Origin: Spironucleus salmonicida
Lineage: Eukaryota
Assembly (NCBI RefSeq): GCF_000497125.1
Contig: NC_090603.1
Span: forward strand, 124,001 to 188,000
DNA length: 64,000 nucleotides
Reading direction: 5' to 3'
A program made the position numbers and the translations under genes. Each line of letters begins with the position of its first letter. Positions within the stretch are counted from its first letter, which is position 1. The notes beneath the pieces were generated by a model. That model worked only from the letters and a program-made list of their open reading frames with translations, did not search any database and was not told the DNA's origin. Positions 1 to 59,984 of this stretch are shown one piece after another.

Positions 1-445
1 TTGAAAGAATAGGTTAGCAGAAAAAACACTCTACTTAGAGGCAGAGAGTTGCGTGCACCTAATATGTAGCAAACTACTTTCTAACTCTAAAAAATATTAT
101 ATATAATCTATGGATAATTTTTCGTAAATAATATGCGAACGGCTCAGTGCTATGCGCACGTGCACAGAAATACGAAAATCACAATTACACATCCTCACTG
201 CTTAGGCTGCTTGAACCCCCTGATATCAACCAATATCTGAATACCGGCCGCCAAAACCCCGCCCAATATCCCGCCAAGCCCAGTTATTAGGTAAAGCGGC
301 AGTAACGAATAAAGGTCGGACTAGTCAATGGTTTCAAAAATAGGAAGGCTAATGGACTGGTATCTGGCGATACAGTAAATTTCGCCTCTATTTATAAGGG
401 CAGAGATTTATTATATTGCGCTCACATTCTATATAATAAATTCGA
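1..445. repeat. Direct duplicate of 29647-30091, probably continuing left of the window
   Basis: Near-identical from TTGAAAGAATAGGTTAGCAG to AATAAATTCGA, then abrupt divergence. Confidence 0.92.
195..445 (-). pseudogene. 3' fragment (TM and tail) of the type-I membrane protein family at 29841-31472
   Basis: Encodes EFIIQNVS...LYLITGLGGILGGV..AGIQILVDIRGFKQPKQ-TGA; sequence beyond 445 is unrelated to the intact gene. Confidence 0.75.
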
Positions 446-1124
446 TTGATAATTTACCAAATATATGACATAATTGAATTGGTGTAGTAAAAATACGCGT
501 TAATAACGAGAAGGTAAATAAAAAATTGCGTGTATTTGATGATCTTTAGGAAATGATTCTCAAATAAGCTGGAGTTTTAGGTAAATGCGCAATTTACTAA
601 AATAATGAGCTGCAACTTCATGATGAATGGTTACAAAAACTCTTGTAAATTATCGTATATTTTATGCATTTCAAATATTCAAGTTAATTCGCTACCTTAT
701 ACATTATTTGTTTACTATATTTTATTTTATGATTGGTGCTAAATGAATTAAATAGTAATACATTGTATGGTAAATAAGATTTTTAGTGTGGACTATATAT
801 TATGCTTGGAATGTATTATACAATATCTCAAAATTCTATACAAACCCCGAATAAAATAATTTATATTTACTTGTATATTACGTATTTATGTTTAAAATTA
901 TAAATTGAAATTCTACTATATTTTCTGAATCTAACAAATATATGCCTGGTTTCTTCTAACTTCTACGTATTTATCGTTAATATTACTAAGCTTAAAAAGC
1001 GATACGTCCTCAAATATTATTCCTTCCTTTATATTAAACTGTACAAGAAACTAAGAAATGAACAAATTTTAATTTGAAGTTTACTGTAAATACTGAGATT
1101 GTGGTTTTTCCGCTTCTTTATAAA

Positions 1125-3200
1125 ATGTCATCCTACATATGCAATGACAACAGATGCCCCAGCGGTACTGTATGCCCATTTTACGCATCAACTGGTCAAG
1201 ATAAAATGTGTCGTCGTTGCAAGAATTATAATTGTGCCAGTTGCCTATCAAATGTGCTATCGCAATGCATTACCTGCAATTAGGGCTATTTCCTTTAAGA
1301 TTGGACATGCAAGCTTTGCCAAGCCGGTTGCAGAACATGTGAGAACGATTATGAATGCACTAGTTGCCTTTCAGGATATAAGTTGGATCAACGTTACTGT
1401 TATAAGTGCTCAGATAACTGTATTGACTGCAACACGTATGGTGATTGCAATATTTGCGGCCCAGGATTTTTTACTGAAGGTGGCCCTAACTGCCATAAAT
1501 GCAGCACCGGCTGCGTTAAATGTACTAACTCAAATAATTGTTCTGCTTGCTTCGATGGCTTCGAACTGGGCGGAATGGTCTGTAAAACATGCTCCATCGG
1601 TTGTAAGACCTGCAATAAGGGAGTTTGTACGTCATGCAGATATTCATTTGCGTTAAAGGACGGCAATTGCACGTCGTGCCCTGAAAACTGCGGCAAATGC
1701 ACAGCCGAAGGCTCCTGTATCACTTGTCAAGACGGAAGTTTCTTGAAGAACGGCATGTGCGTTTCGTGCGGTGATAACTGCATGGACTGCAAATCCGACA
1801 GTATGTGCCGCCTCTGCAAGGAGCGGTACGACATTCAGAGCGGGAAATGCATATTAAACGAATGTAACGATGTTAACAAATGCACTGACAATAAATTCTG
1901 CGCCAGGGATCCCGCGGGCAACAAGTGCGTCACCTTGCCCAAAAACTGCGTTGACGCTGACATTTCCGGAAACTGCATAAGATGTGAAAATATCTATGGG
2001 GTAGAAGACGGCAAGTGCGTGTACTGCGCAGTATATTGCAATATCTGCATTTCACCTAAGCAGTGCACCAAATGCTACGAGAACTACTTCCTCAAAAATG
2101 GCGTATGCACCAGCTGCTCCGACGGGTGCAGGTCCTGCGAAAGTGCGACAAAGTGCACGAGGTGTTGCCTGGGATATACGCTGGATCAAGATATTTGCCA
2201 AAAACAGGGGCCTCGCGAGTGCTCCAAGTCCAAGTCCTGCCCAAGTGGCAAATTCTGCTTGTATTACCCCTGGATAAGCACGTGCGAGACCTGCGCTGAG
2301 GGCTGCTCCGCCTGCTCCGATATCAAGTCCTGCACCGCCTGCATAGATGGCTACAGGTTGCATGAGTAAACGTGCGTTAAGCAAATTTGCACAGACTCAA
2401 AATAGTGTCATTATGATACATTTTGCGAGATTTTGCCTACCGGCAATATTTGCACCAACTGCTCCGAGGGGTGCAAGTTCTGCAGTACCGCAACAAAGTG
2501 CACGAGATGCAACCTGGGATATTCGCTGGACGGCGATATTTGCCAAAAGCAGGAGTCCCACGAGTGCACCAGCGACAAAGCCTGTCCAAGTGGCAAATTC
2601 TGCGAGAAGAAATACTTGAATAACACGTGTGAGAACTGCCGGGAAGGCTGCACCACTTGCACAGATTCCAGAACATGCCTTTAGTGCGCTGGAGGATATT
2701 TCAGTAGCAAAGGGACGTGCTAAAGCTGCAGCCAGAACTGCAAAAGCTGCAGGGATTAAGACCTTTGCTACGCATGCCAAAACGGGGCCGAAATGGTCGA
2801 CGGTCTCTGCGCGCAGCCGGTTTAGAGGATGAGCGGTGGGTCAATCGCCGGGATCGTTGCTGGGTTGGTTCTGCTTGTAGGGCTCATTGGTGGCGCTATA
2901 GCATTTGCGGTCGCGAGGAAGCGGAAGGTGCAGCGTTCGGTCTAGGGCGATTTGGAGGTGAAAAGGAGAATATCTAGCTTTAAGTAGACGACGACAGCAT
3001 TTGGAGCAAAGTCTCGAAGTGATAGTATTTGGTAAAGTTTATTGGTGTGTGATGAGTTAGGAGGTTTAAGGTACAGGATGAGCTGGGTGGGGAAGTGGCG
3101 GCAGAGTGAGAATGAAAAATTGTTGGTGGGTGGTAGGTGTGAATGTGCAGGGGCAGGTCTGGAGCGCAAGGGATGCAAAATTCAAAAATAGCTGGGCTGA
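1125..3200 (+). CDS. Cysteine-rich membrane protein (CXXC-repeat, VSP/CRMP-like), copy 1, tail frameshifted relative to copy 2
   Basis: Track ORFs 1074, 1383 and 2433 join in one frame with TAR=Gln; dense CXXC; TM GGSIAGIVAGLVLLVGLIGGAIAFAVA then RKRK; A4 at 2961 (A5 in the paralog) puts the TGA at 3020-3022 out of frame, next in-frame TGA 3198-3200. Confidence 0.85.
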
Positions 3201-3792
3201 TAATTTCACATTCAGCAAGCTTGCTTAACGAACAGGAGCCGGCAATCGCTGCGATACTTCGAAATAGGCTCTAGCTTCTAGCGCTATCCCTGAATGCGGT
3301 AGGCAGCGCACCCAGGTCTGGTAATATCGGAATACGGAGCGAGTGCATCAGGCATCTGGACCGGAATCCTGCCGCCATGGTTTGGGCCATATGGCAGCAC
3401 TCCTCCTTACTGTGTGCAGCAAACAGCCACCCAAAGTAGCAAAGCGGCTAAACACGCAGTTGAAGCACGCTGCGCCTAGAAGCTTCGATGGGACTAGTAG
3501 CTGGGGCTGGTGGCATTAGGGGTGGCAAGATGGGGCAGTATGCGTGCGCCGGGAACACCCAGGCGCATAGTAGCAAGGGGTTATGAAGCCCATGGCGGAG
3601 CACGCGTATATTTTTGATCCAGCGCTACCTCTCAGAAGGCTGGCGCCCAAATAAATGGTAAAGGCATGCCAGGGGTGCGAAGGGTAGGTGGGATTTGCGC
3701 GACTCTAGGGATGCTAATTGAATGCATGCAACGGATTTACCTTAGATGAGTAGGCCACCGATAAGAATATTCGGCTTCCGGCGCTTAACAGT
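2731..3792. repeat. About 1.06 kb near-identical direct repeat of 15262-16324 (CRMP 3' end plus downstream DNA)
   Basis: Matches from GCCAGAACTGCAAAAGCTGC to GCTTAACAGT with few differences. Confidence 0.92.
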
Positions 3793-4233
3793 GCCAAGCA
3801 GTAGGTACCCTCCAGCAGTAAGTAGTCAATACCAAAAGCCACTTAGGGCAGTCTTCAGTTTCAAAAGTGGCAAGCCATTTTTTATGACCGCGATGTGATC
3901 ATAACATGCCTCGCTGCCTTTAAAACTAAAGCAAACAAAAGTTACTTTTAGTATGAGCTACTTACTACTATAATAGTTTTACTTGTAGATAGATAAAAAT
4001 AAATAACGAACCACAAAATGTGAACCACAAAAAAATAAGAAGAATATAAATATATGTGTCTAGTATGCAAATTTTCACTTTATTCTGAGTACTAGATGAA
4101 ATTTTAGTTTTAGCCTGAGTTTTCAATATTTATAATGATACTTGAGGGATAATAAGTGCATATACCTTGGGAACCAATTTTCAGAACCACAAATTTTATC
4201 ATGTATATATACTAAAATAATTATATTTAAGTA

Positions 4234-4250
4234 AAGTCCCACTCCCCAAA
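4234..4250 (+). promoter_or_regulatory. C-rich element immediately upstream of the ATG
   Basis: AAGTCCCACTCCCCAAA-ATG after an AT-rich stretch; similar tracts precede kinesin, nagB and HDAC. Confidence 0.55.
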
Positions 4251-5423
4251 ATGCTAGGTGTTGTGTCTCGTGGCATCCGCGCTCCGATCATCAAGCAGGG
4301 AGACGAAATCCGCTCCATCGTGGTCGATACCGTTCTCAAGGCGGCCCAAGAAAACTCTGTGACCCTCCAGGACCGCGACGTGGTCTGTATCACCGAGTCA
4401 GTCGTCGCCCGCGCCCAGGGCAACTACGCCTCCACGGCGGCCATCGCTGCCGACGTCCGCACCAAGACAGGCGGTGGTACGGTAGGGCTGGTGTTCCCCA
4501 TCCTGTCCCGGAACCGCTTCTCGATGCTCCTCAAGGGCATCGCGCAGGGCGTGGACAAAGTGGTCATCCAGCTGTCCTACCCGGGCGACGAGGTAGGCAA
4601 CCTGCTGTTCCCCATTGAGGCTCTGCTCGCCAAGGGCATTAACCCCCACTCGGACCACTTCACAGAGGCCGCCTTCCGCGCCCACTTCCCGAGCACCATC
4701 CACCAGTTCACCGGCGTAGACTACATCGAATACTACAAGTCCGTCGCCGGCCCCAACTGCGAGATCGTGCTGAGCAACGACCCCGCGCACATCCTCGCCT
4801 ACACCGACGTCGTCATCGCCGCGGACATCCACTCCCGCGGGCGCACCAAGCAGCGTCTGCTCAGTCAAGGCGCGCGGACCGTGCTCTGCCTGGACGACCT
4901 GCTCACGGCCAGCGTGGACGGCTCCGGCTTCCAGCCCCAGTTCGGGCTCCTCGGCAGCAACCTCGCCCGGGACGACCAGGTGAAGCTCTTCCCCCGCGAC
5001 TCGCAGGCCCTGGTCGAGCAGATCCAGGCTGACCTCCTGGCCCGCACCGGCAGGACGCTCGAGGTCATGGTCTTCGGCGACGGCGCCTTCAAGGACCCCG
5101 TCGGCGGCATCTGGGAGCTGGCGGACCCCGTGGTGAGCCCCGGCTTCACTGCGGGTCTCAGCGGGCTCCCCAACGAGATCAAGCTCAAGTACGCCGCCGA
5201 CAACGAGCTGGACGGGCTGAGCGGCCCGGAGGCGGAGCAGGCCATGCGCGCCCTCATCAGGCGCAAGAGCGCGGACCTGGTGGGTAGCATCGCCGCGCAG
5301 GGCACCACGCCCAGGGCGCTGACGGACCTGCTCGGGAGCCTGGCGGACCTCACCACTGGCAGCGGCGACAAGGGCACCCCGTTCGTGCTGATCCAGAACT
5401 ACTTCAAGAGCTACGCCGAGTGA
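4251..5423 (+). CDS. Coenzyme F420-0:L-glutamate ligase (CofE-family)-like protein, bacterial type, probable lateral transfer
   Basis: 390 aa; motifs RGIRAPIIKQGD, DRDVVCITESVVARAQGNY, FPILSRNRF, GDGAFKDPVGGIWELADP, GTTPR.LTDLLGSLADLTTGSGDKGTP recognised as the Firmicutes-type family; high GC3; ends GAG-TGA. Confidence 0.85.
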   Translation: MLGVVSRGIRAPIIKQGDEIRSIVVDTVLKAAQENSVTLQDRDVVCITESVVARAQGNYASTAAIAADVRTKTGGGTVGLVFPILSRNRFSMLLKGIAQGVDKVVIQLSYPGDEVGNLLFPIEALLAKGINPHSDHFTEAAFRAHFPSTIHQFTGVDYIEYYKSVAGPNCEIVLSNDPAHILAYTDVVIAADIHSRGRTKQRLLSQGARTVLCLDDLLTASVDGSGFQPQFGLLGSNLARDDQVKLFPRDSQALVEQIQADLLARTGRTLEVMVFGDGAFKDPVGGIWELADPVVSPGFTAGLSGLPNEIKLKYAADNELDGLSGPEAEQAMRALIRRKSADLVGSIAAQGTTPRALTDLLGSLADLTTGSGDKGTPFVLIQNYFKSYAE

Positions 5424-5482
5424 CGTTTTCCTGTTTATCACGAGGTGCCGCGGGAGACGACCCCGAGTGACACGAAAGAAGC

Positions 5483-5722
5483 TCACGGAATGCCGGCCAG
5501 CCCCACGAACAGGGCGAACACCAGGCTGCTGAGGACGCCACAGAAGACGCCGACGCGCAGCTCCCCGGGCATGCTGCTGTGCAGCACGAAGGGGAGCGCC
5601 AGGACGTTGAACACGAGCCCCACGAGGATCCCGCACACGATCGCCAGCATTTTCTGGAAGCTGCTCATGACGCAGTTCACCGGCTATACGACGTTCCCCA
5701 GCCCCTCCAGGTTCCTCTCCAT
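5483..5722 (-). CDS. Possible small two-TM protein or frameshifted remnant
   Basis: MERNLEGLGNVVQPVNCVMSSFQKMLAIVCGILVGLVFNVLALPF...VFCGVLSSLVFALFVGLAGIP; a GC3-rich frame starting near 5793 (MRALNLEVEQQSDD) is shifted relative to it. Confidence 0.3.
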
Positions 5723-5860
5723 CACGAGCTGACCAGGTTATAGTCACTCTGGTCGTCGCTCTGCTACTCCACCTCCAGATTGAGCGCCCGCATCGGCGTC
5801 AGGGTAGCGCGGGCCGCAGCTAGGGGGGCTGCCTACGCTCCTTTTCCTTTCGCACCAAAA

Positions 5861-7633
5861 ATGACAGATGGTGCGCGCGCGGCAGACCGCAGCGGGGATG
5901 CTGCCCCAGAGTCCCAGGGCCTCATGACTACCACGCTACCGGCCGCAGCCGAGCTTCCCGATCCCCCCGTAGCACACCTCTCGCTCGACGGCAGGTGGGA
6001 CGCCGCAGTGCGCCTGGATGCTCTGACCAGCCTGGCCCTCGCCGATATGGACGGGACGGAGCCGCTCAGGTACGTGGAGAACGTGCGCGATCTGCGGCTG
6101 GAGCGCGTGAGCGGCAAGATGGATGTCGGCCCCGCCCTCGCCAGGCTCACCATCGTCGACTCGCCCATTATGTGCCGCAACCCCCAGGGCCGCGACCTTC
6201 CGAACCTGACCGAGGTAATCATATCATGTACGTCAAAGGAGTTTTCAGAACCCTGCGAATTGGCCAGCAACTGGCAGCCGCTGCTCAACATACTATAGGG
6301 GGCGAAATAGCTGAAGAACATGACACTGAATCGTAGCGGCACGCCTTACGCGAGTGTGCCGGATATGTCCGGACTTAGATAGCTGGAGATGGTAGCTCTC
6401 AATGGAATAACTGGCAGTATCTACTTTCCCCCCAGCCTGCGGAGCGTCACCCTCACGGATTGCATCGATTCGATCTTCTAGTGCGATGCCGATTCACTGC
6501 CGGACCTGCGAGAGATATTCCTCGATGATGTGTACTGTGATTAACCTTCCTTGAATAACATATTGGGAACGGCTAACGGGTTGCGGAAGCTGACGTTGAA
6601 ATATAACGGTTCCTATTACGATGAGTATTAAGTGTGTCCACCATAAATATCTAGACTGAAATAGCTGGAGACGCTGGTGCTTGACAGAATAGAGGGCGGT
6701 ATCTGTTTTTCCCCCAGCCTGCGGAGCGTTACCCTCACGGATTGTATTGTTTATAACTTCCAGTGCGATGCTGAGTCGCTGCCGGACCTACGAGAGATCT
6801 TCCTTTACGATGTTTACTGTCATTAACCTTCCTTGAATAACATATTGGGAACGGCTAACGGGTTGCGGAAGCTGACGTTGAAATATAACGGTTCCTATTA
6901 CGATGAGTATTAAGTGTGTCCACCATAAATATCTAGACTGAAATAGCTGGAGACGCTGGCACTTGGCGGAATAGAGGGCGATATATGTTTTTCCCCCAGT
7001 TTGCAGAGCATCACCCTCACGAAGTGTACCGTTAATAACTTCCAGTGCGATGCCGATTCACTGCCGGAACTACGAGAGATAGTCCTGGAGGGCGTAACCA
7101 ACGAAAGCACCTCCTTGGCTAGGGTGCTGCAGCTAGCACACGGGCTCTAGCGGTTTATCGTGCGCGGAACGGCTGAGAACTGCACCGCGGTATTGGAGCT
7201 ATACCTGCAGCCCTCGGTCATGATGCTGGAGCTCGATAGGGTGCGTCTGGAGCGGCTGGTCCTGGTCGGTGCCCCGTACGTGGAGCGGCTCCGGCTCCGC
7301 AACATCTGCATCCCGCCGGACCAACTGTCTGTGCTAGACAGGCTGGTGAGGGTCAGAACGGTCATGCATCTGAACGTGAGCTGCATTGGGGTGGGTTCCG
7401 GGCAGCAGGATGCCGCCAGCCTGTAGCAGTTCGCGCTTCCGGCCTTCATCCGGAGGCCTGGTGTGGACATTGACCTGGCCGTCCGGGTTGGGCAGTTGTA
7501 CGTCCAGCGGGACAGCATGGTGTACCAGGAGGGCGATTCCCAGCCGGTGGCGCTGCCCACGAGGCTGGCGGCGTTCGTGTACCGGCAGAAGATAGAGCCG
7601 CTGGTCGTCCTGTGCGGGGCGCTGGTGGAGTGA
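5861..7633 (+). CDS. Leucine-rich-repeat-like protein, 590 aa
   Basis: Single frame with TAR=Gln joining track ORFs 5780 and 7160; LxxLxxLxL-like units (LPNLTEVII, LRQLEMVAL, LPDLREIFL, LKQLETLVL); ends GAG-TGA. Confidence 0.75.
6380..7090 (+). repeat. Internal 282-bp (94-aa) tandem repeat, about 2.5 units
   Basis: TTAACCTTCCTTGAATAACATATTGGGAACGG at 6541 and 6823; CCCCAGyyTGC at about 6431, 6713 and 6995. Confidence 0.9.
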
Positions 7634-7658
7634 GCCGCTTCGAATCGTTCCGCTCCCA

Positions 7659-11944: not shown

Positions 11945-12737
11945 TCACCGTTATGGATGACCGTTTATAATTTTTAAGAGGCTGGAACAACCAATAGTTG
12001 TCCCTGCTTTGGGTTCATTACTACTATATAGCTGCATGAGACTTGTCCGAGGGCTCTTCATCTAGTAGTAGAAGATAATGCTAAAGTCAAGCAAGGGGGT
12101 GAATCTTATGTCCTATAAAATTTCTCTGCACAGAAGGACGTTGGACTCCTCAAGATGCTTGTTGCAGTCAAAGGTAACCACTGGGTTTGTGGGATCTGCC
12201 TGGTTTTTCATGAACAGCCCGCTTGTCAGCCGGAGCGTTTTGTTGAATGCGGACAGCTCGGCGTACACGCTCTGATTCAGTACGGGATCGTCCAGGGTGG
12301 CAGCATCTGCGAACAGCGTATTCGAATAGTCGCAGCCTGTAGTTTTGGAGCTGATAATGAGCGTCTCGCCTAGTATCTCGCACGTGGCAGCGGTCAGGCA
12401 GTCGTTGCTGTTGAAGCTCAACACCGAAAAATAGGAAAGGGTCTGTTTGATTTCGGCGTCCATGTCCAATATTTAGATTAAAAAGTTCGACTGCCTCGTG
12501 AGAGCGCCTGCCGCTTGCTGTTCCACCGTATCGAATTTTATCTCGACCCGAATATCAGCCAAGTGCTTAAAATTGTAATTTAGCGAACTGGCCGTCTCCG
12601 AATTGGCAAGCTCCACCTGGGCTCTGGCTAGTCGGCCGGAAAGCTGCTAGCACAATTGGAAAGCCCTGGAGTCGTCTGGCGCTAAGTAAGACGCTATGAG
12701 AGTGCCTTCATGTGTGATGGGATTGTAGGTAAAAGTT
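11945..12737 (-). pseudogene. 5'-truncated copy of the membrane-protein family carrying the short alternative C-terminus
   Basis: Matches 59192-59984; lacks ATG and signal peptide, with an in-frame TGA just upstream of the junction. Confidence 0.8.
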
Positions 12738-46314: not shown

Positions 46315-46393
46315 CCAATAAGGAATGGAGGCAGATAATGGAGTGGACAAATAATAATGTTATTATATCCTAAATATATATTAATTACAAAAA

Positions 46394-46789: not shown

Positions 46790-46903
46790 TTAGGTATGAT
46801 ATTATTTTATCTATATTATTTTTAAATTTTGATTTTTAAATTTTGTAATAAAATAATATATATTAAATACTAACTATTTGATAACGCGCTTTCCACATTT
46901 AAG

Positions 46904-48151: not shown

Positions 48152-48217
48152 ACTTGTTTTTCACTTCGCAGGCGGATACGGCATAACCCCGGCAGTTGCA
48201 ATTGAAGCTCACTCAAA

Positions 48218-49830: not shown

Positions 49831-50007
49831 ATGCTTGTTATTTTATCTTTATCATGCTACCAGCCCAATTCCCCTATTATTTACAATCATGTAACCTATT
49901 AATGTGTATTATTAGCGTTCTACTTGACACCGGACGACGCAAGGGCTTTTTAATTTCGCGAGCGAAATGGAAGGGCAAAACGAAAATTTGGAAGGGGCAA
50001 TAATTGA
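49831..50007 (+). pseudogene. 5' fragment of a diverged paralog of the type-I membrane protein, joined out of frame to the kinesin 3' copy
   Basis: MLVILSLSCYQPNSPIIYNHVTYQCVLLAFYLTPDDARAFQ aligns with MLVVLSLTCYQPNSTFTYNPITHEGTLIASYLAPDDSRAFQ; TGA at 50005. Confidence 0.8.
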
Positions 50008-50155
50008 TTATGAGCGTATAAAAATCATAGTCGAGTAATTTGTGCCGTAGAAATTTTTGGACGCGATTTTGGACGCGGCGAAGTGGGACGAGGCGGAGGG
50101 AGTCTGGGTGATTCCTGGCGCGGAGTGGGCCGGGAACCATGTCAGGGGCGTGTGA
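49952..50155 (+). pseudogene. Duplicated 3' end of the kinesin-2 gene
   Basis: Reverse complement of 39121-39324. Confidence 0.88.
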
Positions 50156-50614
50156 GGGGTTTTTGCGGTTTCTAGGGGGAGTTCGCGGAGAGGAATTAGT
50201 ATATCAATATATAACATAATAATAATAATACTACAGGTTTGAAATTTAGTATTTATATTATATTGTTATAAAAGGATAAAATTCTAAAAATGGGCGCCTT
50301 GGCTTCACAAGCAGCGCGCAGTGCCGCCTCTGTATCAGAGGAGTTTAGACGGATTAATGCGGTGTCTCTGCCGTTTCTTGTTTGTGTGGAATCTGGTCAC
50401 GGTACAATACGCCGAAACTCTGGGCTTCTGCGGTTATCTCAAGAGTGCCGTAACTCGAGGAATGGTCAGTGGTATGCGGTGCTTTTGGCATTATAGGCTG
50501 GTTTACGGTGTCTGGGAAGTAGTTTATATGTAAAGCTGCACCGCATTCTAGCGTTAGGCCGAGCTGCTGCGGAGCCTTAACGAATGGAATAAAATAATAT
50601 ACAATTGCAGTTGA

Positions 50615-53600
50615 TCATTTCTACCTCTTCTTAGCTGACTTCCTAACTTCAGACTCATATATTCTTAACATAGATTTAGGGGTGACGACGTCTGACTAAA
50701 AAAGAATAATATCTGACTAGATAACACCCACCTGAGCAATCGACTTAGAAAAGTTTTTAGCTTTTAATGTCAGTCCTATCTCACTATGAGAGCCAGAGTC
50801 GAACATCATGTAGTATACACCATCCTACTAGTCCATAATTCCCTCCAAGCCTGTGAAACCGTGAAAAGTGATTAAGAAGTCCGGATGCTTTTAGTCGATA
50901 GTTTAAAATTTTCTAAATAACTCTTATTTGTCTATTGAGATAGCGCAGATTAGAGTTTTACAGCTAGCAGTGGTTTTCAATGATTAAAATACAAGATTCG
51001 AATAATTCAAGCCATACTTCAATATTGATTACTAAAATTCACTAAAAGTAATGTCATCATAAATAAAATCATCAAATGGCTGTTATAAGCAAACAAAGTC
51101 TGCATTTTTGCATATCGACTTCATCAACTCTAATGAAGCCGCTTATGGAAGATCACTTCCAACAATATTGAAATAAATGGAATAAAGATTTTGTGCTTTA
51201 AATATTTTCGATAAATCAGATATGGTTTCATGATTTCCTACTATTGTATACAAAAATAATAATAAAGAGTTTATTTCTGTTAAATACGGCAGGTTTTACA
51301 TAACTAATAACTAATTAATATCGTCGCTGCTAATATTTTTAATAAACTTGCTAAAGTTTATTTATATTTTGTAATAAAATAACACTAAATAGTTTAAATT
51401 AATGTAGCCAGATGAAGTAGTTAATATTTTAAACTCATCATATTAAACAAAATTAATATTATACTGAATATTTTTGTCTAGTTTAACAATATCAAAATAC
51501 TATCCAAAGCAATTTGATTTATTAACTGAAAACAAAGTCTAGTTATTAACATTAACTTACTTTAAATTATTAAACGCTATTTTTTGGTTTTTCATACACA
51601 ACCACAGTTAAGGAGAAATAAAAGGCAGATATAATTATTTTTCTAATGCTTTTTCAGGGCATTGGATATTGTAATAGTCCAAAAAAGTAACAGCTGCCAT
51701 AACTTATACTTTATTAATCAACCCTTTGTCATTATCCAATGCAATAGTTACCTGTTAACTTTTGAATATTTACTTTAATAGTGATACATGTGGTTACGGG
51801 ATTCCAATAATTCTACTATGCTAATAAGACCTTACATCAGAACTTGATTCTATGTTTTGCTGTATGTTGTTCCTTTTAATGAAATTAAATATAGACATAT
51901 CAGTTCCCGCATATATACATTAGGTTTTGATATTATAACTTTTTATGTGGCTTTAGACTCGTTCAATATAGTAATTAATACTTCGCCAAAAAGTTGATTC
52001 AATAGCTCTTAAATTGTATAACTCTTAGATAAATACTAATAAGCCATTACTATTTGACGAACCTTAGGTTATTGTATTATAATATTTCTAAACTTAATCT
52101 AATCCCCTTGGATTATCTATTATTGGAGAATTCATCATTATTAAAGTTAAATATTCGATTGGTTTATATAACTTAGCACACTGTGTATATTTCTCAAAAA
52201 CAAGATCTTAATTATATGATCTCCTCCTATTCTGCTAAACTAAAACTTCGTCCACTAATAGTAATAGATTATCGTTTATTTACACTTTTTAAGGAGAATT
52301 ATCCTGTTACTTGTACTTCTAGGGTAAATGCTAAACTAAATTTGAAGCATATGTCGCAAATTAATCGGAAACACGGTTCATTTACAGTAACAGTTAGCAC
52401 AATGTAGATAGCTTCTGGTCCTTCCAGGCCTCATCTGCCTCTTAGCACAGAATTTCCTACGCCTCTATACTATTGATGGCGTCAGTACCTTCTTTCGGGA
52501 GAGTTCCTTTTCTGGCGGCTATGAACTCGTTAATGTAAACAACTACAATGTTAATAACCTTAACCGTCTCCTTCTGCAATGAGCGTATGGGCACGAGATA
52601 GGTGGCGTCAATATTAGACAACATGCGCGAAAAGTCTAGAATTATTTCATTGTGCTTGCACACTTAGCGCTCGACCACCTGCAAATCCTATTATAATTTC
52701 TCGGTAGCAAATTCCGGATATAGGTTTAACAAAACCTTCATCAGGTCAAACAGCGAAGAAAGCTTCTGGTCCTTCCAGGCCTCATCTGCATTTTGACACA
52801 GAATTTCCTACGCCTCTACGTTATTGATGGCGTCTTTAACTTCTTTCGGGAGACTTTCTTTTCTGGCGGCTATGAACTCGTTAATGTAAATAACTACACT
52901 GCTAATAACCTTAACCGTCTCCTTCTGCAATGAGCGTATGGGCACGAGATAGGTGGCGTCAATATTAGACAACATGCGCGAAAAGTCTAGAATTATTTCA
53001 TTGTGCTTGCACACTTAGCGCTCGACCACCTGCAAATCCTATTATAATTTCTCGGTAGCAAATTCCGGATATAGGTTTAACAAAACCTTCATCAGGTCAA
53101 ACAGCGAAGAAAGCTTCTGGTCCTTCCAGGCCTCATCTGCCGCTTAGCACAGAATTTCCTACGCCTCTACGTTATTGATGGCGTCTTTAACTTCTCTCAG
53201 CATAGATGGTTTTCTGGCGGCTATGAACTCGTTAATATAAGTAACTACACTGCTAATAACCTCAATGGTCTCCTTCGTCTAAAACTTTATTAGATCATTA
53301 GCATGAAACGTCCCAATATTGTTTAGATATGTGATAACATCTACATTGTAAACTTTATTGTGAATATCCCTAAAAATTATTTACAGGTCTGTTTTTAGTT
53401 TCTCATCAATAAAATCTGGGTAAAATTTTTACAAAACCTTCATCAGGTCAAACAGCGAAGAAAGCTTCTGGTCCTTCCAATAAGTAAAATTGCCCAATTT
53501 ATTTCCTTAAAAATTCTATTATTTTACTTTTAACTTCTATCTTACAAATAAAAACGAAATAATTATCAAATAATACTTAGCAAATAGTGCTATTAACTTG

Positions 53601-56600
53601 GAAAAAATATTTGAATATTTAAATAACTAATTTTTTTATACATTCAATAAAATTTCCTACGCCTCTACGTTATTGATGGCGTCTTTAACTTCTTTCGGGA
53701 GACTTTCTTTTCTGGCGGCTATGAACTCGTTAATGTAAATAACTACACTGCTAATAACCTTAACCGTCTCCTTCTGCAATGAGCGTATGGGCACGAGATA
53801 GGTGGCGCCAATATTAGACAGCATGCGCGAAAAGTCTAGAATTATTTCATTGTGCTTGCACACTTAGCGCTCGACCACCTGCAAATCCTATTATAATTTC
53901 TCGGTAGCAAATTCCGGATATAGGTTTAACAAAACCTTCATCAGGTCAAACAGCGAAGAAAGCTTCTGGTCCTTCCAGGCCTCATCTGCATTTTGACACA
54001 GAATTTCCTACGCCTCTACGTTATTGATGGCGTCTTTAACTTCTTTCGGGAGACTTTCTTTTCTGGCGGCTATGAACTCGTTAATGTAAACAACTACAAT
54101 GTTAATAACCTTAACCGTCTCCTTCTGCAATGAGCGTATGGGCACGAGATAGGTGGCGTCAATATTAGACAACATGCGCGAAAAGTCTAGAATTATTTCA
54201 TTGTGCTTGCACACTTAGCGCTCGACCACCTGCAAATCCTATTATAATTTCTCGGTAGCAAATTCCGGATATAGGTTTAACAAAACCTTCATCAGGTCAA
54301 ACAGCGAAGAAAGCTTCTGGTCCTTCCAGGCCTCATCTGCATTTTGACACAGAATTTCCTACGCCTCTACGTTATTGATGGCGTCTTTAACTTCTCTCAG
54401 CATAGATGGTTTTCTGGCGGCTATGAACTCGTTAATATAAGTAACTACACTGCTAATAACCTCAATGGTCTCCTTCGTCTAAAACTTTATTAGATCATTA
54501 GCATGAAACGTCCCAATATTGTTTAGATATGTGATAACATCTACATTGTAAACTTTATTGTGAATATCCCTAAAAATTATTTACAGGTCTGTTTTTAGTT
54601 TCTCATCAATAAAATCTGGGTAAAATTTTTACAAAACCTTCATCAGGTCAAACAGCGAAGAAAGCTTCTGGTCCTTCCAATAAGTAAAATTGCCCAATTT
54701 ATTTCCTTAAAAATTCTATTATTTTACTTTTAACTTCTATCTTACAAATAAAAACGAAATAATTATCAAATAATACTTAGCAAATAGTGCTATTAACTTG
54801 GAAAAAATATTTGAATATTTAAATAACTAATTTTTTTATACATTCAATAAAATTTCCTACGCCTCTACGTTATTGATGGCGTCTTTAACTTCTTTCGGGA
54901 GACTTTCTTTTCTGGCGGCTATGAACTCGTTAATGTAAATAACTACACTGCTAATAACCTTAACCGTCTCCTTCTGCAATGAGCGTATGGGCACGAGATA
55001 GGTGGCGTCAATATTAGACAACATGCGCGAAAAGTCTAGAATTATTTCATTGTGCTTGCACACTTAGCGCTCGACCACCTGCAAATCCTATTATAATTTC
55101 TCGGTAGCAAATTCCGGATATAGGTTTAACAAAACCTTCATCAGGTCAAACAGCGAAGAAAGCTTCTGGTCCTTCCAGGCCTCATCTGCATTTTGACACA
55201 GAATTTCCTACGCCTCTACGTTATTGATGGCGTCTTTAACTTCTTTCGGGAGACTTTCTTTTCTGGCGGCTATGAACTCGTTAATGTAAATAACTACACT
55301 GCTAATAACCTTAACCGTCTCCTTCTGCAATGAGCGTATGGGCACGAGATAGGTGGCGTCAATATTAGACAACATGCGCGAAAAGTCTAGAATTATTTCA
55401 TTGTGCTTGCACACTTAGCGCTCGACCACCTGCAAATCCTATTATAATTTCTCGGTAGCAAATTCCGGATATAGGTTTAACAAAACCTTCATCAGGTCAA
55501 ACAGCGAGGAAAGCTTCTGGTCCTTCCAGGCCTCATCTGCCTCTTAGCACAGAATTTCCTACGCCTCTACGTTATTGATGGCGTCTTTAACTTCTCTCAG
55601 CATAGATGGTTTTCTGGCAGATATGAACTCGTTAATGTAAGCAACCATATTATTAACTAAAGCAATTATTTTAACCTTTTAGAATTTAATTAAGTCAGTT
55701 TCCGAGGTCTTTTCAATCCTTTATAGGCAAATAGCAACATTTAGATTAAGTGATATCCTGCAACATGCTTAAAAATCTTCTTAAATCTTTATAACGAATT
55801 ATTCTTTGATAAATGTTGGAGATAAAATCAATAACGATTTAAGTAGTTCAATCAGTATGCTTATTTAATCTTTAGTTAATCCTGCTCCTTGTGTTATACC
55901 CAAAATACTTTAGTATTTAGTGTAATTTTACAATTATTAATAGCTTCTGGTATGATCAGGTGTCATTACTTAAATAAAATTTTCGCAATTTTTGATAATA
56001 GACTCTAAATATTATTAGCTAAGTATGCTAAACTGCTAACACATATTTGGATCTTTCAAATAAAAATACAACTCATTTTACCAATTTTCTTAAGGACAAA
56101 TTAATAAATACTATGCATGAATATATTTTTCTAATCCTTTTATTTAGTCTTCTTCAAAGTAATCCACAAAAAATACATTATTATATGTTAATAAAATCAG
56201 CTAAATCTCTTAGCGTTTTTTAGTTTCTTCAACAAATAACTAGTTATATAATGACGTGTGATTCCGTCGTAAGGGGTAAAGCACATTCTCATTAAATATA
56301 TAGTTATCCATAACTTTATTCAGTAAAGAATTATGGGTTTATGAATTAACATAGGTATCATATAATGTGATGTCTTTATCTGCTTCAATGTGTAATAATA
56401 CTATATCGGATGCATAATTAAAAATTTTTTTGTTATTTAATGAGTATTTTTAATAGAACTATTAAAAATTAATATATTTCAAATCAAAAAATAACTACCT
56501 GAAACTAAGTAATGGGCTTTTTCGCTACAATATTTCTTAATTCTAAATATATTTCTAGGAAATTTCTTCTAATATTTTCTCATATATTTTATTATACTTT

Positions 56601-57655
56601 TATTTTTCGTATTAATAATCTTCTGAAGTGAAAAATATCTTTAGTGCATCTGCATAGTTTAAACTAGTGTTAGAGTAAATTTGTTATGAAGTATTTTATG
56701 CACACTATACATAAAGTGTAGTATTTCTTAAAGAGAAATAATTATAATAGTATGTAGAAAGTAGAGATACTGATTTCCCTGATCTAGAACTATTGCTTAG
56801 AATTCCATTTTTAATATTTTTATAACTTGCAGTTTATCCAGATACCAAAGATTATAATATAAAATGCTCTGTCTTGAACATAAATGAAGGTGCACATAAC
56901 AACTAAAAAAAATCGATCTTTACTTTATCCTTTAAATGCAATGGAAGATGAAAACAATTATATATTACAAAATTATCAACACTTTCTTCCCAAGAAAGCG
57001 AGTTAAACAATGATTCTGCCTATATAATACATTATATTATATGCTAATTTTGCATTAATTGATTTCCAGCCTACAAAGTTAGGAAATTAGCAGATAACCC
57101 ATAAATAAAGGCCAAAAAATTTGGAGATAGAAGACTTAAATTCTTTACTGTATATTATAGCAGTACAACTATAACATTTAAAGTGGACAGATTTTGAGAG
57201 ATAGAATTCGTAACTGATGCCACATATTCAAATGGTGGATATAAACAAGTAATAACCTGAAAATATTGATCTGCTAAAGTAGAAGAGTCAAGATTTAAGG
57301 TGGTTTAATACACGTTATATCCTAAGTGTACTAATAGGATACCTAAGTTTGACCATAATTCTGATATTTAATGAGTTTAAATATCATGCTTCGGAACATT
57401 GTAACGAATAACAAATCTTCGAATACTAATGTCATTAAATATAAGTTTTTATTGATAAAGTACAACAAATACATGGAAAACTTTTAAAGTTTCCACAGAA
57501 TCAACATTAATTGAAATATAATTCTTAACATCTTTGATGACGTCATCTTAGAATGGAGAAAGACTACTGACTAGTAATTAGCTATCTTCATAGGTAATAT
57601 GGAGATCTAACAACCTTACATGATCATAGTTAAAAATAGTAAATATAGATTTCAT
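50615..57655 (-). CDS. Giant repeat protein copy 2, 2346 aa
   Basis: Same termini as 32968-38661; 7041 bp, in frame; expanded array. Confidence 0.8.
52405..55660 (-). repeat. Coding tandem array A-A-X-B-A-A-X-B-A-A with 1200-bp higher-order period
   Basis: Track ORFs 52808/54008/55208 and 53657/54857 are 1200 bp apart; 351-bp sub-period. Confidence 0.92.
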
Positions 57656-59150
57656 TCTAATGAAAGTAAATATTAATTTAAACCAAAAGATAATAATAAA
57701 TATTATATTGATATATGTTTAATATTTTTTGTTTATATCTAATATATCCTAAATATGAAAATACTCATTATGATATTATGTGCAGTAATACCCAACTTTA
57801 CTAAAAAGAAGAATTATGGATTGTAGAATATTTGAGTTGTAAAGCAGCTCAAGAGTGGTAAGTCATCCAATAAACCCCCTTAATGCCAACATTGATTAAA
57901 ATAAATTGAACAATGAATGAAATAGAAAAGCGATTGAAATTCTTTTTATCGTTTTTTTTAATTTTTATACGTTTGCATAGGTTGGTTTACTACTTCTATA
58001 TTACGTGAAATTTCAACTATAGGTGCTAAAATTTATGAGTGTTAGGCTTACATGCGGAGTAGTGGGAAATTATGTTTATCGACTGTTGCCAATACAGAAA
58101 TAGCACTCTCCGTCCTGTAAAAGCTGTATTTTTGGAAGTAAAATTGTGAAATACGTATTTAAAATGGTAAACTACAATTTTTACTGCTACGATCAATTTA
58201 AATTTTAGTTAAAACTTGGTTTCTAGGTATTATAACTCTCCCATTCATTAAGAATGCACGTGATATTAGCAATCATTCGAAAATCCGTAAACTACCAGAA
58301 TGCATCTCCGGTGCTAAGAAAATGCAATAAGAAAACTGTCAATCCCGATAAGGACGAATTTTTGTAAAGACTTTGCTGAGTTTCTTGAGGGATATGGTCT
58401 TGTCTACAATGTGCAGTTACTGATATCAATAAGTTGGTATCGTCAGCCTTTTTGGATAACCCTAGTGTAGAAGTTTGATTTAATATAGTCCTAGTCCTGT
58501 TAAAAAACGAAATCGAGTAGTAGATACTCATAATTTAGTTCTAACTAAATTGTGAGAATCTACTGTGTTCATTGTTAATTATGACTTTAAAATTTTGGCA
58601 CTAATTAAAAAATTCATATAAAAAGGTAATAAAAATTAATAGAATTCCTACATGCAAATTAAGGTGAGTATTTGCGTTTCTATTACTATACTTAGTAATA
58701 TTTAAACTATACTTTATTTTATTTAACTTTAAGGTGTATATAAATTATTTTGCTATAATTATCCAAGTATCATGATTTAGTGCATTTTTAACTTAAATTA
58801 TAATGTTTATTTTTATTTAATATTATTATATTACTATATTCGTGGAAAAGGAAATTTAAGAATATTTTAATAATATACATTTAACTGCAACTTTACTTTA
58901 TTATTAAAAGGATTACAATAATAAACTATAAATGAGTGAATGCATACTTAAATCGATTATTTTTTCAATTAGTATAAATATATAATATAAATTCGTATAG
59001 TTTCATAATAAATTTTTGTTTACATGTAATTTAATACAATAGCATAATATTGATTTACCATCTTTCTCAAAATCCTTCAAATTTTATTTGTAAATTTCAA
59101 ATTTCCAAAACGTAGATATATAGTTAAATATCCCTTTCAATTACAGAAAA

Positions 59151-59984
59151 ATGCTGGCTGTACTATCCTTAACATGCTACCAGCCCAACTCAACTTTCAC
59201 CTACAATCCCATCACACATGAAGGCACTCTCATAGCGTCTTACTTAGCGCCAGACGACTCCAGGGCTTTCCAATTGTGCTAGCAGCTTTCCGGCCGACTA
59301 GCCAGAGCCCAGGTGGAGCTTGCCAATTCGGAGACGGCCAGTTCGCTAAATTACAATTTTAAGCACTTGGCTGATATTCGGGTCGAGATAAAATTCGATA
59401 CGGTGGAACAGCAAGCGGCAGGCGCTCTCACGAGGCAGTCGAACTTTTTAATCTAAATATTGGACATGGACGCCGAAATCAAACAGACCCTTTCCTATTT
59501 TTCGGTGTTGAGCTTCAACAGCAACGACTGCCTGACCGCTGCCACGTGCGAGATACTAGGCGAGACGCTCATTATCAGCTCCAAAACTACAGGCTGCGAC
59601 TATTCGAATACGCTGTTCGCAGATGCTGCCACCCTGGACGATCCCGTACTGAATCAGAGCGTGTACGCCGAGCTGTCCGCATTCAACAAAACGCTCCGGC
59701 TGACAAGCGGGCTGTTCATGAAAAACCAGGCAGATCCCACAAACCCAGTGGTTACCTTTGACTGCAACAAGCATCTTGAGGAGTCCAACGTCCTTCTGTG
59801 CAGAGAAATTTTATAGGACATAAGATTCACCCCCTTGCTTGACTTTAGCATTATCTTCTACTACTAGATGAAGAGCCCTCGGACAAGTCTCATGCAGCTA
59901 TATAGTAGTAATGAACCCAAAGCAGGGACAACTATTGGTTGTTCCAGCCTCTTAAAAATTATAAACGGTCATCCATAACGGTGA
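59151..59984 (+). CDS. C-terminally truncated, TM-less variant of the type-I membrane protein, 277 aa
   Basis: Near-identical to the intact gene through ...RTSLMQ (59897), then 28 unrelated codons to TGA 59982. Confidence 0.6.

Follow-up and report, generated by a model that had tools for sequence, protein, structure and literature searches.

Several duplication edges in a 64-kb stretch of Spironucleus salmonicida DNA cut through members of one small gene family. Is a gene of this family itself prone to breakage, so that it drives duplication around it, or are its pieces merely what duplication left behind? We favor the second answer with a probability of roughly 0.55: nested segmental duplications yielded the five family pieces of the window (the whole 64-kb stretch analyzed) as by-products, and the pieces do not point to a gene that is fragile in itself. 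The locus would then be an ordinary nest of segmental duplication and gene conversion.

Five pieces of one gene family

The kinesin, HDAC and CDC14-like genes of the window contain in-frame TAA and TAG codons, which shows that code 6 (TAA/TAG = Q) is used here. The whole window was therefore translated with code 6 in all six frames and searched with a family profile (alignment A1). The search recovered exactly five significant pieces, the number originally predicted, and nothing else at E<0.3. These pieces, M1 to M5, and the segments of the intact gene are as follows.

195..450, minus strand: M1, 3' end only (last 84 codons plus stop), in homology block a (1-450), which is clipped by the window start; profile match about 450 to 198, E 2.3e-16
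11945..12737, minus strand: M3, CDS nt 42-747 (12032-12737), then a tail of 28 codons read from block c (11945-12031); profile match 12736 to 11948, E 5.6e-85
29841..31472, minus strand: M2, intact gene of 543 aa plus TGA stop in code 6; profile match 31472 to 29844, E 2e-183
29647..30096, minus strand: a', final 256 nt of the M2 CDS and the 194 nt that follow it, a copy of 1-450
30097..30725, minus strand: mid, CDS nt 748-1376 of M2, single-copy in the window, GC 0.32, GC3 0.27
30726..31431, minus strand: s', CDS nt 42-747 of M2, 706 nt, GC 0.50, GC3 0.65
49831..49955, plus strand: M4, 41-codon stub, the diverged 5' end of another member of the family, 69% nucleotide identity to M2, GC 0.36; profile match 49831-49955, E 1.2e-09
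59151..59984, plus strand: M5, CDS nt 1-747 with the start codon, then the 28-codon tail from c that M3 also carries; profile match 59151-59981, E 1.5e-92

The product of M2 is predicted to have an N-terminal signal-like segment, a beta-rich ectodomain built as a string of beta-sandwich domains, and a C-terminal anchor, a transmembrane helix at about aa 502-536. It has no Pfam match and no CXXC-rich repeats, and it is 53% identical to S. salmonicida SS50377_22744 across 99% of its length. The family occupies a handful of loci in this organism, a number that would leave an enrichment test little power, and its coding sequence makes up 5.7% of the window. Two of the other loci are damaged: SS50377_22721/22720 is split into two open reading frames, and SS50377_25950 has 88 homologous residues followed by an out-of-frame continuation (the frame was read by inspection).

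The s piece is triplicated (30726-31431, 12032-12737 and 59192-59897). M1 (CDS nt 1377-1632) and M3 (nt 42-747) share strand and gene order across a distance of 11.58 kb, and together they miss exactly the 629 nt of mid. They are the collinear halves of one M copy in which mid is replaced by an 11.6-kb block. M3 is without the first 41 CDS nucleotides, the start codon and the upstream region; an older gene model, SS50377_11002 (P0002), covers this locus (12783 to 11948). M5 is an open frame of 277 aa that has lost the membrane anchor and half of the ectodomain, while M4 is fused to an inverted kinesin tail. With an anchorless M5, a startless M3 and two stubs of 84 and 41 codons, the suggestion that the locus yields chimeric surface-protein variants is weak.

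Blocks and junctions

The family pieces are embedded in the following blocks.

451..12031: composite block between M1 and M3, in the place of mid, 11.6 kb
451-1106: sp1, AT-rich spacer in the composite block
1125-3200: Cys-rich VSP-like gene b, in the composite block
4251-5423: F420-ligase-like gene, in the composite block
5861-7633: LRR gene, in the composite block
7957..12031: c, gene-poor, no gene recognized, inverted copy of c'
12738..13802: Xleft, AT-rich (GC 0.27) spacer that meets s at 12737/12738, upstream of Cys-rich b'
13803..16324, plus strand: b', paralogue block of b (1107-3792), 82-97% identity
13821-15554, plus strand: Cys-rich VSP-like gene of b'
31432..39324: e, left arm of a young inverted duplication
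32968-38661, plus strand: repeat gene of e (1897 aa, 351-nt tandem repeats)
39121..40887, minus strand: kinesin gene, with the duplication edge 39324/39325 inside it, 204 nt short of the 3' end
49952..59191: e', right arm of the inverted duplication
50615-57655, minus strand: repeat gene of e' (2346 aa)
59898..64000: c', partner of c, runs off the window end

The left arm e holds the start and upstream region of M2, the repeat gene and the 3'-terminal 204 nt of the kinesin gene, and 10.6 kb separates it from the right arm. M1 and M3, both 5'-truncated, lie 656 and 1065 nt upstream of the paralogous Cys-rich b and b', in the same orientation; the Pfam VSP model matches both of these neighbors. 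The b/b' alignment begins sharply 18 nt before the ATG, and the spacers sp1 and Xleft in front of it are dissimilar. Family remnants were sought in c, Xleft and sp1 by profile search, and in 451-1124, and none were found. The ends of the 11.6-kb block carry no terminal inverted repeats and no target duplication, and a scan of the window for tRNA and Rfam genes returned none.

Four junctions were placed by self-BLAST and base-level inspection.

450/451 = 30096/30097
12737/12738 = 31431/31432 = 59192/59191
30725/30726 = 12031/12032 = 59898/59897
39324/39325 = 49952/49951, with AATT common to both sides

Three of these agree exactly with the original prediction, which had placed the remaining one at 445/30091, 5 nt away. 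At each of them, 98-99.9% identity gives way to sequence without detectable similarity. As had also been claimed, they fall at different positions within the family CDS (nt 41/42, 121/122, 747/748 and 1376/1377). However, the junction 39324/49952 cuts a family member, M4, only at its 49951 side, the other side being the 3' end of the kinesin gene. Here AATT (49952-49955) is compatible with both parents and amounts to a 4-nt microhomology; this is the one joint of the four at which microhomology is readable, the pre-event target sequences of the other three being missing.

The four junctions are not four independent hits. M3 and M5 share their c/s junction by descent, and it counts once although it appears at both loci. 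A single replacement, made in a copy that was dead beforehand, left 450/451 at one end and 12031/12032 at the other. The junctions thus trace to about three events.

Divergence and composition of the copies

Four age classes of duplication can be told apart by divergence, at 2.4%, 1.6%, 0.3-0.5% and 0.1%. Over 4068 aligned nt, c and c' differ by 86 substitutions, of which 46 are transitions, and by seven gap events; 85 of the substitutions fall in the first 3500 nt (2.4%) and a single one in the last 569 nt. Directly abutting this older DNA is a young tract, 11460..12737, common to the M3 and M5 loci, with one difference in 1278 nt. The pair a/a' shows seven substitutions in 450 nt and no indels, and e/e' shows 16 in 3509 nt and 8 in 2425 nt (0.33-0.46%), with no indels outside the tandem array. 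Among the s copies the differences per 706 nt are three (M2-M3), two (M2-M5) and one (M3-M5). Such homology-bounded young tracts inside older duplicates are consistent with conversion or homology-primed copying. The three informative sites in s are compatible with either copying direction, and the order of the duplication events is not fixed by the data.

Base composition changes abruptly inside M2. GC3 stands at 0.65 in s but at 0.27 in mid, with a value of 0.49 in a (Fisher p 5e-16 and 5e-4), and since s and mid are similarly conserved at the protein level (53% and 56% identity to the paralogue), protein constraint does not explain the step. The best model with two change points puts the first at CDS nt 748, exactly at the junction 747/748, and the second at nt 1457 (support interval 1415-1551), about 80 nt off the junction 1376/1377. 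The triplicated s is a GC island with an edge at 747/748, compatible with long-standing GC-biased conversion, although the direction of GC change is unpolarized in this comparison among copies. The single-copy M4 stub is AT-rich (GC 0.36 vs 0.49 for M2). GC enrichment is not universal among copies, e/e' being AT-rich though duplicated, and GC3 varies for other reasons too, as the single-copy kinesin gene reaches 0.61.

Independent sequence evidence

The two M3 junctions are both crossed by the older, independent gene model P0002, and a contig of run X5 extends across 12737/12738, covering 706 nt on one side and 654 nt on the other. At the variant positions listed from public contigs, variants in c carry the c' letter in 13 of 13 cases and variants in a carry the a' letter in 5 of 5, while the c contig of run X2 mixes letters of both paralogues. 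Both paralogues therefore exist in independent short-read data. The public contigs also contain a variant copy of Xleft. Contig 24 of run X5 joins a variant of Xleft plus s to mid plus a, and not to c; it represents an additional copy beyond the window or else is chimeric.

Origin of the locus

The segments and junctions described above are observed, and the historical steps that follow are inferred from them. A unit of about 18.7 kb would have been duplicated directly, with its end 41 nt into the M gene, giving a promoter-less M copy fused to Xleft at 12737/12738. In this dead copy an 11.6-kb block would then have replaced the middle 629 nt. This block would consist of stitched copies of nearby DNA (the Cys-rich b, F420-ligase and LRR genes and an inverted c'), and its arrival would have created the junctions 450/451 and 12031/12032, the latter being the copy or the source of the identical joint between c' and the s copy of M5. 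Later, repair or replication synthesis may have made the young inverted copy of s' and e, primed in shared homology and terminated by the 4-nt microhomology join in M4 (49951/49952). Gene conversion among the copies would afterwards have kept s and a near-identical and raised their GC, so that the GC step in M2 coincides with a duplication edge. The edges may cluster in this family because the first truncation left redundant, dispensable copies that tolerated later joints, because dispersed s copies offered homology for further exchange, and because joints were duplicated along with the blocks. Template-switch copying is a reasonable mechanism, given the inverted copy, the 10.6-kb gap between its arms, the stitched 11.6-kb block and the 4-nt microhomology. 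Of the original reading, the duplication edges at different positions in family CDS are supported and template switching is plausible, while a fragile gene as driver is not supported by these data.

We consider it quite unlikely that the coding DNA of the family, through inherent fragility or as a hotspot of template switching, repeatedly starts or ends duplications and drives local amplification. Four non-homologous joints do lie within family CDS at four positions, four of the six uncensored homology boundaries touch this 5.7% of the window (nominal binomial p 0.0018-0.0045), other family loci are broken as well, and small inverted repeats adjoin two of the three M2 edges at 10 nt or less. 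However, the joints reduce to about three events, one inherited and two being ends of one replacement; the nominal p-values refer to non-independent boundaries and to a family picked post hoc among about 15 window genes; the breaks at the other loci are a frameshift and an ORF split rather than duplication edges; and the inverted-repeat proximity has an estimated chance probability of about 0.05. Base-level inspection found no motif common to the breakpoints, and 80-nt DNA folding energies are ordinary at all 13 boundary positions (GC-corrected percentiles 0.15-0.87). Three events in one small family within 64 kb nevertheless exceed a uniform model (nominal p 0.002-0.005), and some preference for the gene is possible.

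We also hold unlikely a scheme of tolerance and decay, in which the region began as tandem or inverted repeats of a unit that closes with a full M gene, the joints are cost-free scars of deletion or replacement that accumulated in redundant M copies, and selection on the neighboring Cys-rich surface genes amplified these and carried M pieces along. The position of M1 and M3 in front of b and b' speaks for this scheme, as do the decay of family members elsewhere, the intact source copy M2, whose variant letters are borne by RNA-type contigs with a poly(A) end, and the description of Cys-rich membrane protein genes as large, expanding families of this genome (PMC9509377). Against it, sp1 and Xleft are dissimilar even though b and b' align sharply, so that the units are not simply homologous, and the M4/e' joint is an inverted-copy insertion and not a deletion. 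It also overlaps with the nested duplications favored here, differing mainly in the share given to loss as opposed to copying. That the pieces and joints stem from assembly errors, such as wrong joins or false duplicates among the long-read contigs of this repeat-rich region, is very improbable. In the two DNA-type runs the k-mer depth of s reaches only about 1.2-2x the flank depth, against an expectation of three copies, although depth does not equal copy number; X5 contig 24 gives s other neighbors than the window does; and among the contigs listed none spans 450/451 (best 30 nt) or 12031/12032 at a 31-nt threshold. On the other hand, the mutations look real (transitions make up 46/86 in c/c', with only seven indel events in its 4.1 kb and none in e/e'), and divergence is graded from 0.1 to 2.4%, unlike that of a false duplicate. 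P0002 was assembled independently, a contig of a second study crosses 12737/12738, and c-type and c'-type letters are both present in short-read contigs. Moreover, the published assembly was checked against optical maps, with read pile-ups inspected at the largest duplications (PMC9509377).

Comparison with known systems

Replication-based complex rearrangement (FoSTeS/MMBIR) and break-induced replication offer one comparison. The window resembles these in its direct and inverted copies from within tens of kb stitched at one site, its 629-nt deletion at the insertion, its single 4-nt microhomology joint and its lack of transposon marks. It differs in that microhomology is readable at one joint of four and that its segments diverge by 0.1-18%, their ages blurred by later conversion; a single catastrophic event is therefore not demonstrated. 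Core duplicon gene families occupy the edges of segmental-duplication blocks in primates, and here too one family recurs at nested block borders with truncated and fused copies. In contrast to the core duplicons, the M family is tiny, the pattern comes from one 64-kb window, and expressed fusion genes are hypothetical. Mosaic surface-antigen families that arise by ectopic recombination, such as Giardia VSPs and S. salmonicida CRMP1/2, likewise consist of membrane-anchored surface proteins in a recombining, duplicated neighborhood. Unlike these, M has no Pfam match or CXXC-rich repeats and a predicted beta-sandwich ectodomain, and its chimeras are fused to unrelated DNA rather than to other family members, with loss of the anchor.

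A further likeness is with the duplicated regions of S. salmonicida itself (Xu et al., 2022; PMC9509377). In the assembly, built from PacBio reads and optical maps, 19.2% is duplicated at at least 2 kb and at least 95% identity, and the GC of duplicated regions is 44.7% vs 30.7%. As in the window, these are multi-gene blocks, 95-99.9% identical, with GC above that of single-copy DNA, often including members of multi-gene families and lying beside Cys-rich membrane protein genes in gene-poor DNA. The main text of that study gives genome-wide totals, without junction anatomy, the M family or a coincidence of GC step and duplication edge. GC-biased interlocus gene conversion has been suggested for this genome (PMC9509377). 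The sharp GC islands formed by near-identical copies, with borders that cut through a gene (GC3 0.65 to 0.27 at the junction), resemble its expected outcome, whereas the youngest and longest pair, e/e' (8-9 kb), lacks GC enrichment and the substitutions are unpolarized.

The kinesin, NagB, F420-ligase and 2085-aa proteins of the window have exact database matches, all on one 1.07-Mb contig, and three of the four fall into clusters, at 90% identity or more, with named proteins of S. salmonicida. NagB has four more paralogues on the same contig, and additional ones exist for the F420 ligase and the 2085-aa protein, which indicates that the duplications reach beyond the window.

The M Family and Its Five Pieces

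Read in genetic code 6, in which TAA and TAG stand for glutamine, the window holds one intact member of a membrane-protein family, referred to here as M, and four incomplete ones. A family profile run against the six-frame code 6 translation of the window returned exactly five pieces and no others, at the coordinates that the original prediction had assigned to them:

195-450, minus strand: M1, an 84-codon stub (CDS nt 1377-1632)
11945-12737, minus strand: M3, CDS nt 42-747 with a tail read from unrelated DNA; no start codon
29841-31472, minus strand: M2, an uninterrupted frame of 543 codons (31472 to 29841)
49831-49955, plus strand: M4, a diverged 41-codon stub
59151-59984, plus strand: M5, with its start codon and upstream DNA, encoding 249 family residues and 28 unrelated ones, and no anchor

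For annotation purposes, M2 is the intact gene, M5 a truncated frame, and M1, M3 and M4 are pseudogene fragments. The suggestion that such rearrangements give rise to chimeric surface-protein variants finds little support in this inventory: no chimera of two family members was found in the window, and the altered pieces are anchorless, startless or stubs.

M2 shares 53% identity with S. salmonicida SS50377_22744 over 99% of its length. Through an exhaustive HMMER search (E<=0.001), 11 family proteins were gathered, among them several that are incomplete or remote:

SS50377_22721: 333 aa, N-terminal part of a family protein
SS50377_22720: 136 aa, C-terminal part, neighbour of SS50377_22721
SS50377_25950: 155 aa, 88 homologous residues followed, by inspection of the sequence, by an out-of-frame continuation
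SS50377_11002 (P0002): an older gene model with a family match
several Hexamita inflata proteins: 480-530 aa, 19-21% identity in the alignment

The family alignment has 21 invariant columns, seven of which are Cys. M2 shows the features of its relatives throughout, namely full-length similarity, an N-terminal signal-like segment, the conserved Cys pattern and a predicted C-terminal transmembrane helix. Modelled by AlphaFold on an alignment of 12 sequences (moderate confidence, pLDDT 66.8), M2 is beta-rich, and the predicted transmembrane helix falls at residues 502-536. Foldseek matched this model to generic multi-domain beta-sandwich proteins alone (Ig/FN3-like strings, TM 0.11-0.22), which speaks to a fold class and not to a family assignment. 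M2 matches no Pfam family at E<=0.01, and it does not show the CXXC-rich repeats and Pfam VSP match by which Giardia VSPs and Spironucleus CRMPs are recognized; the two cysteine-rich genes of the window, b and b', match PF03302 at 4e-11 and 3e-12. From the family set and the structural model, M is best described as a small family, confined to diplomonads, whose members have a type-I anchor and a predicted beta-sandwich ectodomain; it stands apart from the large cysteine-rich families. Given the family set, the signal-like segment, and the predicted ectodomain and anchor, the label "membrane-protein family" is a fair one.

A profile search of a 90%-cluster database returned two entries, P0001 and P0002, and nothing further. 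In an exact look-up against a collection of 15 billion proteins, neither M2 (543 aa) nor the M5 frame (277 aa) was present, and neighbouring genes were. M2 may therefore be unannotated or differently annotated in the public record.

Duplicate Blocks and Their Joints

The pieces of M lie at the edges of paired duplicate blocks, mapped by self-BLAST. Within M2, s denotes CDS nt 42-747 (706 nt), the middle is the single-copy stretch nt 748-1376 (629 nt), and a is the last 256 nt of the CDS with 194 nt downstream.

a: 1-450, partner (a') 29647-30096
b: 1107-3792, partner (b') 13803-16324
c: 7957-12031, partner (c') reverse complement of 59898-64000, where the match stops at the window end
s: 12032-12737, partners 30726-31431 and reverse complement of 59192-59897 (three copies)
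e: 31432-39324, partner (e') reverse complement of 49952-59191

These are segmental duplications in the usual sense, that is, long paralogous stretches in one molecule with 0.3-2.4% substitutions, mostly without indels, whose similarity is lost abruptly at the edges. At base level, the four joints lie at 450/451, 12031/12032, 12737/12738 and 49951/49952, all within 5 nt of the figures in the original prediction and three of the four exactly as given there. They cut the gene at different positions, as had also been claimed: CDS nt 1376/1377, 747/748, 41/42 and, in the diverged M4, 121/122, respectively. The observation was accurate and careful. M1 seemed in one tblastn search to run on past 450, as far as 680, but this was an alignment artefact: a separate search with 451-1124 showed no similarity (best E values 0.16-0.76).

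M1 and M3 lie on the same strand with gene order kept. Together they are one copy of M that lacks the first 41 nt and in which the middle 629 nt are swapped for the 11.6-kb block 451-12031. Public contigs of the intact gene, aligned to 1-13700, jump from 450 to 12032 and so display the same relation between M1 and M3. The c-to-s joint of M3 is also the c-to-s joint of M5, and the two loci are alike over 1278 nt bar one base. Remnants of M4 were sought in c', and none were found.

Unequal Ages and GC Composition

The duplicates differ from one another to graded extents:

c/c', first 3500 nt: 2.4% difference
c/c', last 569 nt: 1 substitution
a/a': 1.6% difference
e/e': 0.33-0.46% difference, no indels outside the tandem array
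s copies: 1-3 of 706 positions differ
b/b': 82-97% identity

From this gradation it follows that the duplications are of unequal age.

Composition follows the block map as well. The GC3 of M2 drops from 0.65 in s to 0.27 in the single-copy middle and stands at 0.49 in a; protein identity to the paralogue hardly differs between s (53%) and the middle (56%). In the best model with two GC change points, the first falls on the junction itself, at CDS nt 748; the other, at nt 1457, lies within a, about 80 nt from its edge. M4, a stub in single copy, has an AT-rich composition. The islands expected from GC-biased conversion, near-identical and GC-richer copies with a step at the homology edge, are thus found in s and in part in a; e/e' (GC 0.32) forms none. 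The window may thus help in the interpretation of GC islands as marks of multi-copy DNA.

This agrees with what has been described for the genome as a whole. Duplicated regions (at least 2 kb, at least 95% identity) make up 19.2% of the S. salmonicida assembly, often carry members of multi-gene families, and have a mean GC of 44.7% vs 30.7% elsewhere; few genes and a high GC mark the surroundings of its cysteine-rich protein genes, and gene conversion is among the points that the authors raise (PMC9509377). The window is an ordinary, well-resolved example of this published landscape of duplication and conversion, and the process is a known one. What it offers is the base-level anatomy of one example of the segmental duplications that form about a fifth of the genome, displaying nesting, inheritance of joints, and the probable maintenance, by conversion, of similar and GC-rich pieces as far as a duplication edge within a gene.

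Joints and Copies in Independent Data

The S. salmonicida assembly was built on PacBio reads, with an N50 of about 14.6 kb, and on optical maps (PMC9509377). The differences between c and c' look like ordinary mutations, with 46 of 86 substitutions being transitions and few indels. P0002, which was assembled earlier and independently, begins in the AT-rich spacer 12738-13802, passes through s and ends in the c-derived tail (window 12783 to 11948). It differs from the window at seven amino-acid positions and crosses both joints of M3.

Public contigs from four coded sequencing runs of two studies (X1, X2, X5 and X6) were aligned to the left part of the window, 1-13700. The joint 12737/12738 is crossed by an X5 contig that extends 706 nt to one side of it and 654 nt to the other; at its far end this contig does not enter c but carries 629 unaligned nt followed by 68 nt of a. 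The spacer that it carries is diverged by 2.6%, and the same variant occurs in the DNA-type runs. Over 12738-13475, public contigs hold this second version (15 differences in 575 nt) beside that of the window, and one contig joins the variant to s, the middle and a. Such a contig represents either a further uninterrupted copy outside the window, a haplotype without the 11.6-kb block, or a chimeric contig spanning a repeat. The contig that extends farthest over 450/451 does so by 30 nt, 1 short of the 31-nt bridging rule, and is not counted as a bridge; among the contigs listed for 1-13700, none bridges 12031/12032.

The copies themselves are visible in the same data. All 13 variant letters listed in c are the letter of c', and all five in a are that of a'. 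An X2 contig over c mixes the letters of the two paralogues, which places both c and c' in the X2 reads. The depth of s is about 1.2-2 times that of its flanks in X1 and X2, with visible GC bias, and is not to be read as a copy number. Contigs of X5 and X6, whose RNA-type label is a guess and not on record, have a loose oligo-T/adapter end at about 179 (equivalent to about 29825) with M2-type letters at 250 and 252, which suggests a transcript end or poly(A) site of M2 some 16-19 nt past its stop codon. None of the RNA-type contigs listed runs from s into the c-derived tail and 10969-11425 is uncovered, making them uninformative on expression of M5 or M3.

How the Pieces Probably Came to Lie at Block Edges

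The pattern is consistent with a history of template-switching copying, during repair or replication, and of interlocus gene conversion thereafter. Several templates, as in FoSTeS/MMBIR-type events, are visible in the block 451-12031, where 629 nt of the gene have given way to DNA copied from b' in direct and from c' in inverted orientation, and e' is an inverted copy lying 10.6 kb from its source. Events of this type would leave 2-15 nt of microhomology at their joints; at the M4-to-e' joint, the one of the four with both parents readable, AATT is common to M4 and the inverted kinesin tail. The reading rests on these stitched direct and inverted copies of nearby DNA, on the small deletion at the insertion, on young tracts that are bounded by homology and lie within older duplicates, and on GC islands in the multi-copy pieces. 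It draws further on the young inverted arm, one side of which merges into older homology while the other ends in the microhomology joint. Best read, three events took place, in an order that we infer. A direct duplication would have ended 41 nt inside M; a composite block would then have taken the place of the middle in the dead copy; and an inverted copy of the stretch from the s copy within M2 through e would have landed in M4. On this reading, family pieces cluster at edges since redundant copies tolerate joints, s offers homology for more exchange, and blocks carry their joints along with them.

Other routes to the same map fare less well. Non-allelic homologous recombination between family members would join M to M, and all four joints link M to unrelated DNA; edges bounded by homology are found at the young tract 11460-12737 alone. 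Insertion by a transposable element was likewise rejected. Shuffled sequences score as well for terminal inverted repeats as the ends of 451-12031 and 49952-59897 do, no direct repeat or target-site duplication flanks them, and Pfam found no transposase or reverse transcriptase among the 27 ORFs scanned. Hairpins as a cause of breakage were considered in view of small inverted repeats near 30096 and 30725. These are within chance expectation, and DNA fold energies in 80-nt windows are ordinary at all 13 boundary positions (GC-corrected percentiles 0.15-0.87).

The original prediction had gone further and proposed the family as a fragile site or template-switch hotspot that drives local duplication. 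Template switching is plausible as the mechanism, given the stitched copies and AATT, and fragility as the driver is unsupported: besides the ordinary folds, no motif common to the break points was found, nor did the tRNA and Rfam searches reveal special or structure-prone DNA there. Of the six uncensored homology boundaries, four touch coding DNA of the family, and this DNA takes up 5.7% of the window (nominal p 0.0018-0.0045 for boundary overlap). With the family picked post hoc from some 15 genes, and with events that are not independent, these figures do not establish a true preference of breaks for the M gene, which we consider unlikely. The family's loci are also few, which leaves little power for a genome-wide comparison. 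We would give similarly long odds to the wider idea that family coding DNA is a preferred start or end site for repair or replication copying, a "core duplicon" that seeds and spreads with nested duplications and whose footprint is the GC island of the 5' half. If true, the hotspot would be a tractable protist case of a gene family organising duplication.

Genetic Code and Neighbouring Genes

In the bacterial code, few long frames are found in the window. In-frame TAA and TAG are the sole separators of three adjoining kinesin frames and of the two halves of M2, and with code 6 long genes appear. Besides M, these are:

1125-3200 and 13821-15554: b and b', two Giardia-VSP-like cysteine-rich membrane proteins (code 6 frames)
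4251-5423, plus strand: F420-0:gamma-glutamyl-ligase-like gene
5861-7633, plus strand: GC-rich gene for a leucine-rich-repeat protein, with a tandem array of three 282-nt units at 6346-7191
21944-28201, minus strand: gene for a protein of 2085 aa, its ectodomain Cys-rich and EGF/CXXC-like, its C-terminal membrane region made up of several helices
28860-29564, minus strand: glucosamine-6-phosphate deaminase (NagB-like) gene
32968-38661, plus strand, and 50615-57655, minus strand: two copies of a gene of 351-nt repeats, one per arm of the inverted duplication
39121-40887, minus strand: kinesin (code 6 frame)
within the window: CDC14-like phosphatase and histone deacetylase (code 6 frames)

An exact look-up places four proteins of the window (kinesin, NagB-like, F420-ligase-like and 2085-aa) on a single 1.07-Mb contig, and three of these four cluster at 90% or more with named Spironucleus salmonicida proteins. 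On that same contig, the NagB-like gene has four further paralogues of at least 90% and the 2085-aa gene has one; copies of the F420-ligase-like gene lie on two contigs. With paralogues of these three genes elsewhere, the duplication nest extends past the window.

The gene-poor stretches yielded less. A Pfam scan of 12 ORFs in c and other such stretches gave nothing meaningful, and no tRNA or Rfam genes were found across the window. The older part of c/c' (7957 to about 10000, and 62000-64000) has a GC of about 50%, and low-depth contigs of the guessed RNA type cover c. No convincing code 6 open frame and no Pfam or Rfam match were found in this older part; it may represent the remains of a decayed gene, or else DNA that is transcribed but does not code for protein.

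The F420-ligase-like and NagB-like genes stand out in composition, with GC of 0.66-0.67, GC3 of 0.91 and zero TAA or TAG glutamine codons. Either a bacterial-like origin or strong GC enrichment by conversion could lie behind these features, as could the two combined. The arm copies of the 351-nt (117-aa) tandem-repeat gene are unequal in repeat number, encoding 1897 aa at 32968-38661 and 2346 aa at 50615-57655. In two units of the right-arm copy, an AT-rich stretch of 171 nt replaces 24 nt; the left arm is without it. This stretch, found shortly downstream of gene-sense positions ~54865 and ~53665, reads in frame in code 6 and could be an insertion or an unrecognised intron.
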